Source: Gemmatales bacterium (GTDB lineage: Bacteria; Planctomycetota; Planctomycetia; Gemmatales; HRBIN36). Taken from it: a DNA stretch of 64,000 nt. Positions 24,001 to 30,000 of the stretch are shown here, one piece after another. Position 1 is the first letter of the stretch. Every line of letters begins with the position of its first letter. The position numbers are program-made. The stretch covers positions 116,773-180,772 of the forward strand of contig JBEPZY010000003.1 of assembly GCA_041640595.1 (NCBI GenBank), given 5' to 3'.

Positions 24001-27000
24001 GATGGCGTGCTCAGTTTTGTCAAACTGGCTGCCGGATGGTGGAGCGACCGGTTGGGGCACCGCAAGGGTATTGCCACGGCTGGCTACTTGCTAACGGGTT
24101 GTGCCAAAGCACTGTTCGCCTTGGCTGGGAGTTGGCCGGTTGTTCTCCTAGGGCGGGTGCTGGGTTGGTTCGGGCGAGGGATCCGCAGTCCGTTGCGGGA
24201 TGCTATGCTGGCTGAGTCGGTCCCTCCCCAAGACCTGGGCAAGGCGTTCGGATTCCATCGTGCAGGCGACACGGTAGGGGCGATCGTCGGCCCACTTTTG
24301 GGTGCATCGCTACTGGCTCTTTTTCTGCCCTACGCGGCCGGCGATCCGTCGAGGCCATTCCGGCTCGTTTTCCTTTTGACGTTGCTACCCGGACTTGGGT
24401 CGGCACTGGTTTTCGCGTGGATGGTCCGTGAGCGCCCTCGCCCTTCCAACGAAAAAACTCGGCTCTGGGCCTCTGTCCGTACCCTTCCTGGCTCTTTTCG
24501 GTGGTGGTTGGTTGGGGTGGGTGTCTTTGGTATGGGAGACTTTTCGCACACGTTGTTGATCCTGGCGGCTATGGAACTGCTGACCCCGACTTACGGAGCC
24601 ATGCAAGCTGCCCAGCTGGGTGCACTGTTGTACGCACTTCGGAACGTGCTCTATGCCCTTACCAGCTACCCCATTGGAGCATTGAGTGACCGGGTGGGTC
24701 GGCGGAAGGTACTGGCGGCGGGCTACGCCCTGGCGGTACTGGTTATGCTCGGGTTCGGTGTTTTATTTATGCTGGGTGTGGTCAGGCTCTGGATTCTGGC
24801 GATTTTCTTTGCACTCGCAGGGGTTTTCATCGCCGTGGAGGATGCCCTGGAAGGGACATTGACCGCTGAACTGGTCCCGGAGCTAACGCTGCGCGGGACT
24901 GCTTACGGCGTTTTGGGCGCGGTCAATGGGATTGGCGATCTCTTTTCCAGCGTCATTGTCGGGTGGCTCTGGTTCCAGTTCGGGTTCACCAGCGGATTTT
25001 TGTTCGCGGCGGGCGTAATGGCAACCGGGTTGTTGCTTCTGTGCCTGATCCGGACACCACTTCACCAGGGCGGATGAATCTAACCTGCTGACACAGCGTC
25101 TTGCGAAAATACTGCGTGAGCCCGTGAGGCTAGCTGCTGGCAGGTGGCTGACCCTGGCGGTCAAAATCGTACCGAAACGCTGGCCTTGATTTGGACGAAG
25201 CTGGATTGTACAATCTAACGCGGCGATGGGGTTCGCCGTGAACCGCAGCGGTTCCCTTGCGGAACCGTTGCTGATGACCCCTACCTTGCTGGGTTCTCCC
25301 CGGAAGGTGGGGGTCGCATCGGCGAATGGTCAGGCCCCACCGGGAAGGACCCAGTTCCCGGTGGGGCCTTCTTTTTTGGCCTGCGCTGGAGCATCGCGCA
25401 TGAACGTCATCACCATCTTACGGGAGTACGGCGCAGGAGGCGGCGAAGTAGCACGCCGACTGGCTGATATTCTCGGCTGGGAATTGCTCGACCAGGCATT
25501 GCTTCACGAGGCCGCTGCTATCGAAAATCTCCCCGACGCGGAACTGGAACGCCTGGACGAAAAGGAACTGACTCTGGCGGAGCGGTTTCGTCTTCGTCCG
25601 ACGCATCAGAAATACATCCACGGGCTCACCGAGGCAGCCCGGCGAGCGGTGGCTCGAGGCAACGTGATTCTTGTCGGACGCGGTACCCGTTTCCTGGTGG
25701 GCGACTTACCCAACGCCTTTCATCTCCGGCTGGTCGCTCCGAGTGCCTGGCGTGCCGAACGGATGGCTCGATTGGAACGCTGGTCGGTGGAACAGGCGCT
25801 GGTGCGTTGCCGGGAAGTGGATCGCACGCGGGAACGTTTTACCCGCTACTTTTTCGGGCCGCACGCTCTTGAACCGGAGCAATACGACCTGATCGTCAAC
25901 ACCGGTCGCTTTCCCCTCGAGGAGGTGGTCGCCTGCGTGGTGGCGCTCGTCCGGAATGATTGGGCAACGGATGCCCGGCAAGGTTCGGTCAGTCCCCGGG
26001 TGTTGACGCTGGCTCGCCAGTTAGGGGCCGGGGACACAGGATTTGCTCCGACCCTGGCCGATCGGCTGGGACTGAAAGTGTACGACCGCGCGTTGCTGGA
26101 GCAGGCGGTCATCCAGCTGGGCGTGCGCGAGTCGGAGCTGGAAAAGATTGACGAACAACCAGCCAGCATTTTTCAGCGATTCCGGCCGGGGAGTCTCTAC
26201 CAGCGCTATTTCGAGGCCCTGAAGAACCTGATGCATGAACTGGCGCGGCAGGGCGATGTGCTGATCGTCGGGCGGGGCGGTAGTCGCTTCCTCCGCGACC
26301 ATCCTTCCGCTCTGCATGTGCGTCTGGTGGCAACGATGCCGGTGCGGATTCGGCGGGTCATGGAGCATCGCTGGCTGCGGGAAGAAGCAGCTCAACAACT
26401 CATCGCCGAAAGCGACGAACAGCGTCGCCGTTTTTATCAGGACTATTTCGGAGCCGACTGGGCCGATCCGCTGGAGTATCACCTGACAGTCAACACCGGG
26501 CGGCTGGGACCGACCGCCGTGGACCTCATCGCTTTTGCCGCCCAACGCTACTGGCAGCAACCAGGCCCGCGAACAGCGACCTGAGCTTACGAAGGAGCCG
26601 ATTGAACGAGGGGAACGGTCATGGAACACGCATGGGCAACGGCTGCACTCTGGATGGGACTGGCACTACTGGCCAGCTACCTTTCCATTCGCTACAAGGT
26701 AAGCGTGGCGCTGGTGGAAATCGTTGTCGGCATCGTCGCCGGCAACCTGGCGCTGCTGCTGAATCATTACCAGGTGTTCGGCTGGCACTGGCAACTCAAG
26801 GCCAATGAGTGGATCACTTTCCTGGCAGGGTTCGGCAGCATCCTGTTGACCTTCATGGCCGGTGCGGAGATAGAGCCGGCCGTGCTGCGCAAGTTCCTGA
26901 AAGAAAGCCTGGCTATCGGCGTGGCCAGTTTTGCTGCACCGTTCTTCGGGGCCATGCTCTTTGCTCGCTGGGTCAGTGGCTGGGATTGGAACGCGGCGAT

Positions 27001-30000
27001 GATCTGCGGCATCGCCCTGTCCACCACATCGGTCGCCGTCGTTTATGCCGTGATGGTAGAAACCGGATTGAACGAGACCGACTTCGGCAAACTGATCCTG
27101 GCTGCCTGCTTCGTCACCGATCTGGGTACGGTGCTGGCTCTGGGCATCTGCTTCGCCAATTACGACTGGAGCCTGGTGTCGTTTGTGGCCATTACTGCCG
27201 CAGCTTTGTGGCTGGTGCCGGGGTTTGTCCGCTGGTTCTTCAGCCGCTATGCCACGCATGTCAGCGAGCCAGGGGTCAAGATGGTCTTCTTTGTGCTGTT
27301 CGGTCTGGGAGCGCTGGCGGCACTGTCCAGAAGCGAAGCTGTGCTGCCCGCTTATCTGGTAGGATTAGTCCTGGCGGGAATATTCGCTCACCAGCGCGAC
27401 ACGGTGCGTCGCCTGCGTACCACGGTGTTCGCCTTCCTGACACCGTTTTACTTCCTCAACGCCGGGATGAAAGTTTATACCCCCGCCTTGTGGACGGGTC
27501 TGGGATTAGTCATCATCCTTTTGCTGGTCAAGCTGGTGACCAAGATGATCGGTGTTTGGCCAATAACTCGCTGGTTCCGTTTCGGCGTGCGTGAAAGCAA
27601 CTACACGACGTTACTCATGTCCACCGGCCTCACCTTCGGCACCATCAGCGCCTTATTCGGTCTCAACAACGGTTACATCACCCAGGAACAGTACTCCATC
27701 CTGGTCACGGTGGTCATCGCCAGTGCCATCGTGCCGACCATGATCGCCCAGGCCTTTTTCAGACCGGATATCGAACCAGCCGTGGCAGCCACCATCTCGG
27801 CGTCGCCTCCGGTACCTGCTGGCACCGCGGCGAGCAAAATGGCAGGCACAGATGGTGCGGTGTCTTCCACCGCCCCGGCTGTCCACGCAGCGAAGCAGGG
27901 CGAAACCAAACAAGCCTAGAGTGATCACCGACGCGACCTACACCGATACCGGCGTGTATCAGCAAAAACCATCCGATACGAGGGTACGACCATGTTTCAC
28001 AAGATTCTGGTAGGGATTGATGGCTCCCCGGCCAGCGAAAAAGCACTGGCTGCGGCAGTGGACCTGGCCGCGCATTATCAAGCCGACTTGATCGCCATCA
28101 GTGTCGCCGAGGTACCACAGGTCGTCGGCCTGGTGGACGAAGTGGACGAGCTGCGACAAAGTGCCGAGGCACAACTGCGCGAAATCGGCGCAGCAGCAGT
28201 CGAGTATGCTCGCAGTCGGGGTGTGGTCATGCGTTCCGTTGTTGTGCGCGGGCACGCCGCCGACGCCATCGTCCGCTATGCCGAGAGCGAAGGGGTCAAT
28301 TTGATTGTCCTGGGCCAGCACGGTCACTCGCGGATTTCTCGCTTCTTCCTGGGAAGCACCACCGATCGCGTCAGCGAACACAGCCCTTGCTCGGTGATGA
28401 TCGTCAAGTGAGCGAAGCCGACACCTTCAGCAAAAATCAAAGCAGTACGACGATGATGTTACCGCGGACGTTTGCTCCGAACGGGGCCGTACTGAGATGA
28501 TCACCTTTTTCTGCCCGAACTGCTGGAAAGAAGTGAAGGAAACGGATACGGTTTGTCCTCATTGCCTGGCGAACATTGCCGAGCTGCTGCAGCAGCGAGA
28601 CTATGTCGCCAAACTGATTGCCGCGTTGTCCCATCCGGAGCCTGGCGTTCCGATTCGTGCTGCCTGGATTCTGGGCAAACTCCGTGCCCGAACAGCGGTA
28701 CAGCCCCTGCTCGCATTACTGCAAGGGGATGCCGACCAGTTCGTGAAAGCCGCGGCTGTGGAAGCCCTCGGCCAGATCGGCGACACCACTGCCCGACCAG
28801 TTTTGTTGGAACTCGCCCAGAAAGGCCCGGTCTTGCTACGCAACAAAGCGATCGAAGCACTCCGTCTCCTGCAGGACTCGTAATTTCTGCCGAGCGACAC
28901 AGCTCATACCTTGCGACGTGCAAACCACCTGGCAGAGCTCAACGCATCTCGGCTCAAACTCGGCATAAGTGATTCACTGAGACGAACAACGCAGCTGAGG
29001 CGATGACGTGGCAGGGATGCTGGTACGATAGCAAGACATTTGCCTCAGACGAAAAATGTAGCTGAGGCGATGACCCTCACCGCGAAATGACGCTGATTCG
29101 TGGCAATCGCCTGGAAGATGGCCGACCAACCTGGCCAGGGCGATGAGCATGACCGCGAAGGTGATGACCAATCTTCCCGCAACACCCGCACCCTCCAGGC
29201 TATGAGCCAGGCGAGCTGCCACAGGACACTGTGAAGGTAATGAGCGACCTTCCAGCAAGACACCGAACAGCACGCGGCAAGCCGACAATTGAACACACGC
29301 CAGGGCGACGAGTAGTCTGAATTGCGCAGCAAAACTCGGCCAACACGATTGTGCTTGGCTTGTCCCCAGCTTTGGCAGGAGCGGGCGACTTCACGGCACC
29401 TCGCCAGACAATTCGACTGGAAAAAATCCTTTCTTCTCGCCGAGAACGCCGGCATACTAATTCAGCAGCACCTGGCCAGTTACTGGTGTATGAAAACCTC
29501 GATTTTTGGTCTGGAGGGTCGCACGTCCATATTAGCCGGCGTTCGGCCAAGGCGATCGCAGACAACTGTGCGCGTGGTGATCGGAGACTGTTTTCAAAAC
29601 CTGAGGAAGCTCAGGCGGGCCTTGCATGTTTCACGTGCCCCCGAAAAACAAACCATCCGGCGTAACCAGCATCATGCGTAAGCCTTACATCCAACGTAGC
29701 CTCCGCGAAAACTTGGGATAAGTCAGATCGTACAGACCTCGACACTGTGCGCGTTGGATGCTGCAGGGGTGCTATATTGGTCTAAGCTGCGTCTTCGTAC
29801 AAACTGTCTTCCGGTTGTTGCGCATAGTCCAGCAAGATAGGTATTGGTCTAAGCTGTGTCTTCGTACAAACCTTGATGCTATGGGCGGTAAACTTACCGC
29901 CGGTTACTCTATCGCCGGTTGCTCACGACCAGCCGTTAGTTGCTGAAGAACTTGCAACAAAGTACCAGCCTCTGCCGTCTTCCGTCTCAATGTAAAGGCT

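Follow-up and report, generated by a model that had tools for sequence, protein, structure and literature searches.

The window that we analysed, a stretch of 64,000 nucleotides from the genome of a Gemmatales bacterium, contains a fluoride riboswitch followed by the genes for a tandem PF13189 protein (designated HOM), a CPA-type cation/proton antiporter, and a universal stress protein (Usp), in this order and all on the plus strand (Table 1). An earlier note on this DNA had described the riboswitch and the three genes, and all of them were recovered where it had placed them. The match to the RF01734 model covers positions 1-64 of 64 and is the sole copy found in a genome-wide search; both the score and the uniqueness claimed in that note were thus reproduced.

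Table 1. Features of the riboswitch leader and the downstream genes in the window
Feature	Position	Strand	Evidence
Sigma-70-like promoter, TTGATT-17 nt-TACAAT	25186..25214	+	Consensus scan, 9/12 matches; pattern match only
Fluoride riboswitch aptamer, RF01734	25213..25290	+	46.7 bits (gathering score 34), E 8e-10
Hairpin, aptamer 3' tail GACCCCUACC with downstream GGUGGGGGUC	25276..25315	+	Minimum-free-energy fold
Intrinsic terminator, 15-pair stem (11 G-C), then TCTTTTTTGG	25332..25378	+	Terminator scan, fold
Shine-Dalgarno-like GGAG	25388..25391	+	Sequence read; 8 nt before ATG at 25400
HOM, tandem PF13189, 394 aa	25400..26584	+	Pfam profile, 272.8 bits (cut-off 28)
CPA-type cation/proton antiporter, 432 aa	26621..27919	+	PF00999, 136.6 bits (cut-off 26.2)
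Universal stress protein, 139 aa	27992..28411	+	PF00582, 127.8 bits (cut-off 24)
HEAT-repeat ORF, 128 aa	28497..28883	+	PF13646, 68 bits

The end of the putative promoter (25214) falls at the start of the aptamer. In a comparison of 40 related aptamers, pairing was kept in 95% of cases in P1, P3, and the pseudoknot, as against 43-59% when the 3' partners were slid, and both sides changed in 6 of 13 pairs. At columns 19/70 of the pseudoknot, which joins the 5' loop to the 3' tail, G-C was found in 29 aptamers, A-U in 5, and G-U in 5. The minimum-free-energy fold of 25213-25385 had a z-score of -8.3. Both elements of an expression platform are there, namely the terminator, whose stem itself occupies 25332-25369 and is followed by the T-run, and the alternative tail hairpin, which would be the OFF-state element. 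The sequence CCCCACC in the 5' arm of the terminator is complementary to the G-rich strand (GGUGGGGGUC) of the hairpin, and pairing of these two segments would form the antiterminator once the tail sits in the pseudoknot. The leader may therefore couple ligand binding to expression. Without fluoride, the 3' tail of the aptamer would pair with the downstream G-rich strand, the terminator would form, and transcription would end ahead of the genes. With fluoride, the tail would be locked into the pseudoknot, the G-rich strand would take the 5' arm of the terminator, and RNA polymerase would read through.

At the other end of the operon, the translated Usp has the motif G-x2-G-x9-G-S-T near its C-terminus (GQHGHSRISRFFLGST). 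We take G-x2-G-x9-G-[ST] to mark ATP-binding Usps and thus class this protein as ATP type. The HEAT-repeat ORF starts 85 nt past the Usp stop codon on the same strand; a scan between the two detected no terminator-like site, and short RNA-library contigs bridge 28412-28503. The ORF may be the fourth gene of the transcript, its membership being uncertain. Parts of the operon were also recovered in contigs from three metatranscriptome libraries with a hot-springs label. One RNA-library contig continues from the upstream MFS gene straight across the terminator, and these contigs may include carried-over DNA.

HOM has two domains (approximately residues 1-186 and 199-386), which are 36% identical to each other over 176 amino acid residues and scored 158.1 and 119.1 bits against PF13189 in the six-frame search. 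The proposal of two NMP-kinase-like domains, based on an AF2 model with a pLDDT of 86, agrees with our model (pLDDT 86.9, pTM 0.89). In a profile alignment to the CMK structure 4e22, the GAGKGT of 4e22 aligns with GaGGge of HOM, placing Gly14 at the Walker-A lysine site and Glu16 at the threonine site of domain 1; Asp212 occupies the lysine site of domain 2, whose loop reads GAGDTG. The earlier claim that the P-loops lack the lysine is thus true of both halves, but not as a trait specific to HOM, since a lysine-less loop characterizes PF13189 as a family; GSGG likewise stands in the two members of known structure, 3hdt and 3fdi. The arginines at the GRG, HxR, RxxR, and DRxR positions are invariant in both domains, and acidic LDEK motifs are conserved. 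The assignment of HOM as a cytidylate kinase (EC 2.7.4.25; PF02224/TIGR02173) was rejected, as the Walker-A lysine is missing, the TIGR02173 equivalog score (63.7) is below the cut-off (102.1), and a separate canonical cmk lies on contig 6 (241.8 bits).

The search for homologs of HOM gave 835 at E ≤ 1e-5, and the mean column identity was 77% in 24 sequences from Gemmataceae, Pirellulaceae, and Thermoguttaceae, consistent with the large conserved set reported before. Tandem proteins form a clade of their own, tightly conserved and almost restricted to Planctomycetota, and the protein is under strong purifying selection from end to end. We regard HOM as a probable non-canonical factor of the cytoplasm that binds nucleotides or phosphoryl groups.

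HOM could alternatively be enzymatically active, as a non-canonical phosphotransferase serving as backup for a fluoride-sensitive phosphoryl-transfer step or as an enzyme acting on fluoride itself, for instance by making fluorophosphate. The NMP-kinase fold, the CMP kinases that follow the PF13189 entries as the best structural matches, and the invariant arginines would suit such an enzyme, and the single-domain PF13189 paralog of this genome abuts a nucleoside-phosphorylase-family gene. Fluoride-inhibited enzymes include kinases, according to passages of PMC11139923. Enolase is a frequent neighbor in HOM operons, and extra enolase or pyrophosphatase copies are analogous backups in other fluoride operons. 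However, the extra enolases in HOM operons match ordinary enolase families over their full length, whereas HOM is no ordinary kinase: both Walker-A residues of domain 1 are replaced, an aspartate is at the lysine site of domain 2, and the domain-2 loop varies among distant tandem relatives. A normal cmk is also already present. We therefore consider an active enzyme rather unlikely.

The link between HOM and fluoride was examined at 56 usable metagenome loci and at 34 genome loci for which upstream DNA was available; merging these 90 loci at nucleotide identities of at least 97% gave 80 clusters. A fluoride riboswitch lay within 300 nt upstream of HOM in 50 of the 80 distinct loci and farther off in 6. 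One locus had only a divergent riboswitch, 6 had no riboswitch yet crcB-DUF190 directly 3' of HOM, and 17 were without any fluoride link. Among the genome loci, RF01734 on the plus strand was found within 250 nt upstream in 18 of 34 and 1.5-2.2 kb upstream, behind an enolase or dynamin-like gene, in 2; a divergent riboswitch alone was found in 1, crcB-DUF190 directly behind HOM without a switch in 4 (L006, L011, L021, and L025), and no fluoride link in 9. The metagenome loci served as a replicate, with the switch within 300 nt upstream in 37 of 56, elsewhere in 4, and none in 15; in a subset, Rfam confirmed the switch in 20 of 20 loci. These larger samples supersede the earlier count of only 3 in 7 loci. 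As a baseline, a fluoride riboswitch of any kind was present in only 25 of 151 genomes sampled from the phylum.

HOM is usually the first gene behind the switch, and it stays there whether the antiporter, crcB, DUF190, or a Hyf/Mrp-like membrane complex comes next. Known fluoride genes come after it (antiporter, Usp, crcB, DUF190, and enolase), and a larger conserved operon has the order switch, HOM, antiporter, Usp, crcB, and DUF190. The earlier suggestion of HOM as an unrecognized member of the fluoride regulon is borne out by the 50 loci with an upstream RF01734, the first-gene position, and the fluoride genes behind it. HOM as a dedicated, strongly conserved, but sporadic member of the planctomycete fluoride regulon is thus strongly supported. 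HOM is rare: at E ≤ 1e-30, none of 400 further genomes sampled from the phylum contained it, so most fluoride regulons manage without it. A well-supported subclade of five members sits beside a cytochrome c554 gene and not beside fluoride genes.

This sporadic distribution, together with the identity of about 70% across families, which suggests horizontal spread, and the decayed copies (L009 carries an ISL3 insertion, and only 52 aa are left in L038 and L039), would also fit HOM as a passenger of a mobile fluoride-resistance island with no role in fluoride biology. This is highly improbable, as the place right behind the switch is constant while the downstream genes change, the adjacency to crcB persists in L006, L011, L021, and L025, which have no switch, and purifying selection is strong along the entire protein. 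The constant first place, regardless of the downstream genes, would suit a protein that binds fluoride or Mg-fluoride(-nucleotide), either to buffer it or to sense it and tune the co-encoded transporters; the two lysine-less glycine-rich loops could be anion holes, and the LDEK motifs could hold Mg. However, the loop and the DEK motif are common to PF13189 proteins generally, and it would be costly to buffer sub-millimolar to millimolar fluoride stoichiometrically, so we regard this role as quite improbable.

Six-frame searches of the whole genome (95.47% complete, 42 contigs) gave no match at E ≤ 1 for either CRCB (PF02537) or Voltage_CLC (PF00654), as the earlier note had found; on 14 control genomes, these searches gave matches in 11 and 13, respectively. 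A six-frame search for DUF190, the usual partner of crcB, also gave no match. We obtained the same count as before for CrcB in the order Gemmatales (56 of 60 other genomes). Two further genomes of the same genus, 93% and 87% complete, lack CrcB, and in one of them, G422, in which the switch is followed by the antiporter, CLC was not seen either. The exporter-less state was also found in one other HOM-bearing genome. These results support a genome without a known fluoride exporter and a recurrence of this pattern in the genus.

The earlier note had further proposed that the kinase-like protein, with the antiporter, replaces export. For HOM, this could not be upheld: an operon containing both HOM and crcB occurs at 12 of the 34 loci from genomes and at 30 of 80 from metagenomes, and 8 of the 10 HOM genomes with a crcB-less operon have crcB elsewhere. 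HOM was therefore rejected as a substitute for export. It is the antiporter, whether or not HOM is present, that goes with the absence of an exporter. In 7 sampled Planctomycetota genomes with the antiporter behind the switch, CrcB was found in none and CLC in 1, against CrcB in 86 of 150 overall. The P0002-like antiporter was present in 8 of the 150 genomes, and CrcB was found in 0 of these 8 versus 86 of the other 142; these counts ignore phylogeny, the 8 genomes belonging to 8 different families. Because antiporters of the close type (70-82% identity) are frequently found together with crcB in one operon, the antiporter and the exporter are not strict alternatives.

The antiporter has no KTN/RCK domain. 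In the alignment to NapA structures, it has Thr166-Asp167 where NapA has Asp-Asp, and 15 relatives have T or N followed by an invariant D; Asp167, which binds the cation, is kept, as is the lysine at the position of the NapA TM10 lysine. The assignment to CPA2 by TIGR00932 and paired TM5 aspartates was rejected, as the score (112.2) is below the cut-off (238.3) and the pair is T-D; the broader PF00999 assignment holds.

The genome may not be exporter-free, if crcB or CLC-F lies in the unassembled 4.5% or if the antiporter or another protein exports fluoride. A crcB gene of only about 400 bp could escape an assembly of this completeness and contig number, one same-genus MAG has a CrcB match, and the mutual exclusion of the antiporter clade and CrcB in the phylum sample is expected of functional substitutes. 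A hidden exporter is nevertheless made unlikely by the additional CrcB-less genomes of the genus, G422 being also without CLC, and by the missing DUF190. The antiporter itself is an unlikely exporter, as the retained Asp167 and TM10-aligned lysine fit a cation/proton exchanger better than an exporter of anions.

We favor, with a probability of about 0.55, a fluoride-induced operon under a terminator-type ON riboswitch, in which HOM is non-canonical and no substitute for export, and tolerance is antiporter-based. HOM, with two cytoplasmic NMP-kinase-fold domains that keep the arginine-rich phosphate-binding positions but lack the Walker-A lysine and threonine, would most likely not be a canonical kinase; its ligand would be a nucleotide or some phosphoryl compound, possibly together with Mg, and it may protect or regulate phosphoryl transfer or ion homeostasis under fluoride stress. 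The second product would be an N/T-D-type cation/proton antiporter and the third an ATP-type Usp. Exporter-free tolerance could then arise from the antiporter setting the cytoplasmic pH and thereby the accumulation of the weak acid HF, plus cytoplasmic protection. The weak-acid and pH logic is taken from passages of PMC11139923, in which Na+/H+ antiporters are the second most common cargo of fluoride riboswitches.

Among known systems, cytidylate kinase (Cmk) shares the NMP-kinase fold with HOM; the N-terminal strand-loop-helix aligns, and the CMP kinases 2h92, 3akc, 4die, and 1kdo rank first among the annotated structural matches. HOM differs by its duplicated domain, Gly14 and Glu16 in Walker-A, and the low TIGR02173 score. 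The PF13189 structures 3hdt ('putative kinase') and 3fdi ('uncharacterized protein') belong to the same family as HOM (E 4e-20 and 2e-19; TM-score relative to target 0.81-0.87) and have the same GSGG/GAGG lysine-less loop and DEK motif. Unlike the tandem HOM, they have one domain of about 200 amino acid residues, and their titles name no function. NapA of Thermus thermophilus (4bwz/5bz2) is the best solved relative of the antiporter (E 1.5e-13, residues 61-370 aligned); one carboxylate and the TM10 lysine are conserved, whereas the operon antiporter has T/N-D instead of D-D and scores below the TIGR00932 cut-off. Kef systems differ in having a regulatory KTN domain.

The classical cargo of RF01734 comprises crcB/Fluc, CLC-F, Na+/H+ antiporters, enolase, pyrophosphatase, HAD phosphatases, and formate hydrogen lyase. 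As the earlier note had stated, antiporter and Usp genes under this switch have been recorded before (passages of PMC11139923, PMC5533749, and PMC2864571). The literature that we searched holds nothing tying this family to fluoride, although the gene tables of Baker et al. 2012 might list one. The operon thus resembles classical fluoride-riboswitch operons in its aptamer, its predicted ON logic via a terminator, and its antiporter and Usp cargo, and differs from them in lying in a genome without Fluc or CLC and in having a tandem PF13189 gene as its first gene.

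HOM, the tandem PF13189 protein encoded first behind the fluoride riboswitch of the window, is well supported as a member of the fluoride regulon, and this membership has, as far as we searched, been undescribed. The riboswitch that the earlier note had placed before the gene was confirmed, and it is the single match to RF01734 across the 4.45-Mb genome. The predicted fold of the leader (25213-25385; z-score -8.3) consists of P1, a long P3, one hairpin, and the terminator. In 40 related aptamers, the pairs of P1, P3, and the pseudoknot were 95% paired, versus 43-59% when the partners were slid, and compensatory changes were present in all three elements. 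In the predicted hairpin, the 3' tail of the aptamer (GACCCCUACC) is paired with a downstream G-rich strand (GGUGGGGGUC), to which the CCCCACC of the terminator 5' arm is also complementary. As the G-rich strand is complementary to both the tail and the terminator arm, we infer that the leader may work as a three-part ON switch: fluoride would fix the tail in the pseudoknot, the G-rich strand would be left free to block the terminator, and read-through would follow.

Features of the operon, its surroundings, and related loci (L, loci from genome and metagenome scans, with positions within the locus; other positions refer to the window unless a contig is named)
Feature	Position	Strand	Remarks
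Promoter-like TTGATT-17-TACAAT	ends 25214	+	sequence pattern
Fluoride riboswitch (RF01734)	25213-25290	+	46.7 bits against a gathering score of 34; whole model covered
Terminator stem	25332-25369	+	15 pairs, G+C-rich, then TCTTTTTTGG
Shine-Dalgarno-like GGAG	8 nt upstream of ATG at 25400	+	sequence read
HOM gene	25400-26584	+	394 aa; two PF13189 stretches, 272.8 bits
Antiporter gene	26621-27919	+	PF00999
Usp gene	27992-28411	+	universal stress protein, third in operon
HEAT-repeat ORF	28497-28883	+	85 nt behind Usp, no terminator-like site between
tRNA gene	30959-31030	-	75.2 bits
Single-domain PF13189 paralogue	contig 9 of the source genome (G000), 63262-63774 (L087:1354-2934)		PNP_UDP_1 gene 3 nt behind
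Back-to-back riboswitches	L002:3872-4165, L005:457-757, L013:4617-4906, L027:4571-4841, others	opposite	examples
Dynamin_N genes	L015:2448-4196, L029:3069-4841, L014:2346-3989		further loci: L045, L048, L056, L065, L066, L114, L120, L122, L128, L132
DUF190 after crcB	L005:4290-4637, L011:6667-7008, L027:8403-8750		~40 further loci
NADHdh and Proton_antipo_M genes	L018:6148-9282, L033:6223-9313, L154:3732-4679

A scan with one genome per species gave 38 HOM loci, nearly all from Planctomycetota MAGs and one from an Acidobacteriaceae bin. L020 and L037, cut off upstream, and L038 and L039, with 52-aa remnants of HOM, were left out; thus, 34 loci were kept. Their contexts were taken from Rfam scans, Pfam searches on called ORFs, and tblastn; ORFs in G+C-rich loci were called by codon log-odds, with tblastn as a cross-check. 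A riboswitch on the same strand lay at most 250 nt upstream of HOM in 18 of the 34 loci, and 1.5-2.2 kb upstream, with an enolase or dynamin-like gene between, in two. One locus had a divergent riboswitch only, four had no riboswitch but HOM directly followed by crcB and DUF190, and the fluoride link was absent in nine.

The metagenome scan gave 80 further HOM loci, 24 of which were dropped because their upstream DNA was shorter than 260 nt or their N-terminus incomplete. The remaining 56 were searched with a covariance model made from the 40 aptamers, which found a riboswitch at most 300 nt upstream of HOM in 37, elsewhere in 4, and none in 15; for a subset of 20 loci, Rfam found every riboswitch at identical coordinates. 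When loci with at least 97% nucleotide identity were merged, 90 loci gave 80 clusters. The switch was directly upstream in 50 of these, which strongly supports the membership of HOM in the fluoride regulon proposed in the earlier note; it was farther away in 6 and only divergent in 1, crcB alone was present in 4, and nothing was found in 19 (including 2 in which HOM is followed by crcB-DUF190). For comparison, of 151 genomes sampled from the phylum, just 25 carried any fluoride riboswitch.

In a quick tree of HOM, fluoride-linked loci were scattered across the family, and five unlinked loci formed one well-supported clade. The cluster of L012, L013, L016, and L019, which have long branches, is an artefact, as their straight translations contain 8, 2, 4, and 4 stops, respectively. 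An unlinked subclade (L007, L012, L034, L035, and L036; ~6230-7880, minus strand) adjoins a cytochrome c554-family gene; at two of its loci, HOM directly follows the ribose-phosphate pyrophosphokinase gene prs (L012:3943-4896 and L035:3890-4972). The alignment of more distant tandem relatives (P0124-P0140; 38-53% identical) is highly variable.

A search of 400 other genomes sampled from the phylum found no HOM at E<=1e-30, and HOM was also absent from the three same-genus genomes searched. The protein collection holds 835 clusters of homologs (E<=1e-5), and identity between planctomycete families is ~60-75%. This pattern is consistent with an accessory gene that is strongly selected and has spread horizontally; a clear island was not seen in the G+C content over 18-36 kb.

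The recurrent full operon consists of the switch followed by HOM, antiporter, Usp, crcB, and DUF190 genes, the first three of which are present in the window. It is often accompanied by a second, divergent switch preceding another Usp gene; such back-to-back riboswitches lie ~100-400 nt apart, one leading to HOM and the other to the second Usp (137-145 aa). A dynamin-like GTPase gene directly follows the fluoride riboswitch in many Planctomycetota loci, at times with HOM behind it. With hardly any exception, the gene for DUF190 (PF02641, a PII-like protein) stands behind crcB, and in L010, L016, L119, L153, L157, and L160 it follows HOM directly, with no crcB between. At three loci, HOM is followed by NADHdh (HyfC/NuoH-like) and then Proton_antipo_M subunits, a formate-hydrogenlyase- or Mrp-like membrane complex that replaces the antiporter. 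HOM is interrupted by an ISL3 transposase in L009 (3411-5945), and the antiporter and Usp genes are reduced to fragments in L003 (6402-6632), L026 (3077-3607), and L032 (6205-6604). The remnants of HOM in L038 (5001-5156) and L039 (5001-5157) stand after intact riboswitches. Group II intron RNA domains lie near HOM in two Thermoguttaceae MAGs (L023:8589-10548 and L037:1912-2438), in L023 together with a reverse transcriptase/maturase ORF. In the window, the tRNA gene ~2.5 kb downstream of the operon probably has the anticodon CAU, as its anticodon loop reads CUCAUAA.

Words sampled from the operon were found in 20 runs from 15 studies; the 18 runs with at least half of the words all bore hot springs or microbial mat metagenome labels. 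Population variants of 24900-29100 were 95-99% alike, and the differences were mostly transitions. One metatranscriptome gave a 3007-nt contig that joins the upstream MFS gene to the antiporter gene across the leader, terminator, and HOM, and two other RNA libraries gave small contigs within HOM and the antiporter gene; uncovered parts and depth figures of these contigs carry no meaning. As DNA carry-over is possible, the contigs hint only weakly at expression of the operon in situ.

The AF2 model of HOM (pLDDT 86.9, pTM 0.89) has two alpha/beta domains, and the two halves are 36% identical to each other. Foldseek placed the two PF13189 structures 3hdt and 3fdi, both uncharacterised, at the top, followed by CMP, adenylate, gluconate, and shikimate kinases; matches in the ESM Atlas were confined to PF13189 clusters. 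HOM as the cytidylate kinase of the cell was rejected, as a separate normal cmk is encoded on contig 6 (241.8 bits); the TIGR02173 score of HOM is under the model cut-off. The profile alignment with the CMK 4e22 sets sreyGaGGge opposite DGPSGAGKGT, which places Gly14 at the Walker-A lysine position and Glu16 at the threonine position. The loop of domain 2 is GAGDTG, and the loop is variable among the distant tandem relatives. The lysine is thus absent in both domains, as the earlier note had stated; however, solved PF13189 proteins also read GSGG, and its loss is a trait of the PF13189 family rather than a peculiarity of HOM. Invariant in both domains are Gly-Arg-Gly, His-x-Arg, Arg-x-x-Arg, and Asp-Arg-x-Arg, and the acidic LDEK motif is kept. 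The nucleoside phosphorylase family (PNP_UDP_1) gene next to the single-domain paralogue hints at a nucleoside- or nucleotide-related role for PF13189 proteins. A predicted complex of HOM with the Usp of the operon had a score of 0.15 and a mark of 0.32, values that point neither way.

The best solved relative of the antiporter is NapA; where NapA has Asp-Asp, the operon antiporter has Thr166-Asp167. In an alignment of 15 riboswitch-linked relatives, T or N occupies the first position; the Asp never varies, nor do two lysines and two arginines. From this likeness and these residues, the antiporter looks like a cation/proton exchanger rather than an anion carrier. Kef-type glutathione-gated K+ efflux was rejected, as the protein lacks a KTN domain and falls far short of the KefB/KefC cut-offs.

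Searches of the genome for CrcB, CLC, and DUF190 were all without match, in agreement with the exporter-free state described earlier. Among 60 other genomes of the order, 56 have CrcB. Of three same-genus genomes, two (93% and 87% complete) likewise lack it, which makes an assembly gap an unlikely cause. The observation of the earlier note is real, but its proposal that HOM replaces export was not supported: crcB shares the locus with HOM in 12/34 genome loci and 30/80 metagenome loci, and it lies elsewhere in 8 of 10 HOM genomes with a crcB-less operon. Two genomes with such operons, G402 and G404, lack CrcB; G402 also lacks CLC, and G404 has one (672-aa frame).

It is the antiporter, not HOM, that correlates with missing exporters. 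Where genomes of the phylum sample had a riboswitch, the switch was followed by an antiporter gene (45-52% identical) in 7, crcB in 6, a dynamin-like GTPase gene in 4, and CLC in 2; CrcB was found in 0/7 and CLC in 1/7 of those with the antiporter. Antiporters like that of the operon (P0002; E<=1e-50) occurred in 8 of 150 sampled genomes, from 8 different families, and CrcB in 86, none of them among the 8 (plain hypergeometric estimate ~8e-4, uncorrected for phylogeny). In the same-genus genome G422, the switch precedes an antiporter (44% identical), and there is neither CrcB nor CLC. In HOM operons, crcB often stands behind the closer antiporter type, which speaks against a strict either/or. 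The more general lead, and one just as testable, is the antiporter-led fluoride regulon that recurs without an exporter.

According to a 2024 review (PMC11139923), the cytoplasm becomes more acidic when HF enters, Na+/H+ antiporters rank second in frequency among riboswitch cargo, and yeast acclimated to fluoride withstands a lower internal pH. From these statements, we infer that the antiporter would control HF accumulation through the pH gradient that it sets. With a probability of roughly one in four, HOM, with its lysine-less tandem P-loop, may be a dedicated fluoride-handling protein, either a sensor or binder of Mg-fluoride(-nucleotide) or a fluoride-proof phosphoryl-transfer factor, and may form with the N/T-D antiporter clade a third tolerance route without Fluc or CLC-F, which would act via cytoplasmic pH against HF accumulation and be used by many Planctomycetota.

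No paper in the literature searched joined the fluoride riboswitch with cytidylate kinase, as the earlier note had reported, or with cytidylate kinase-like proteins; the gene tables of Baker et al. 2012, the main inventory of genes associated with the riboswitch, could bear on novelty and lay outside this search. PF13189 gave unrelated papers only, papers found on Cytidylate_kin2 or the cytidylate kinase-like family did not have fluoride in the title or abstract, no paper found combined fluoride, riboswitch, and DUF190, and 'cytidylate' is absent from the supplements of Weinberg 2010. The cargo list in PMC11139923 comprises exporters, antiporters, pyrophosphatase, HAD enzymes, enolase, formate hydrogen lyase, and chorismate mutase; the review contains neither 'universal stress' nor 'DUF190', and its two mentions of 'kinase' concern fluoride-inhibited kinases generally and pyruvate kinase.

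The HOM family and the exporter-less set bear on the engineering of fluoride-tolerant hosts for organofluorine chemistry. As exporter-less bacteria with the switch and antiporter exist, fluoride survival without export is directly testable. To the current picture of fluoride defence, in which export by Fluc or CLC-F is joined by a few helper genes, our findings add a highly conserved family, HOM, whose link to fluoride is closer than that of most known cargo and which offers a testable phenotype, and a set of bacteria with a fluoride switch and antiporter and no known exporter.
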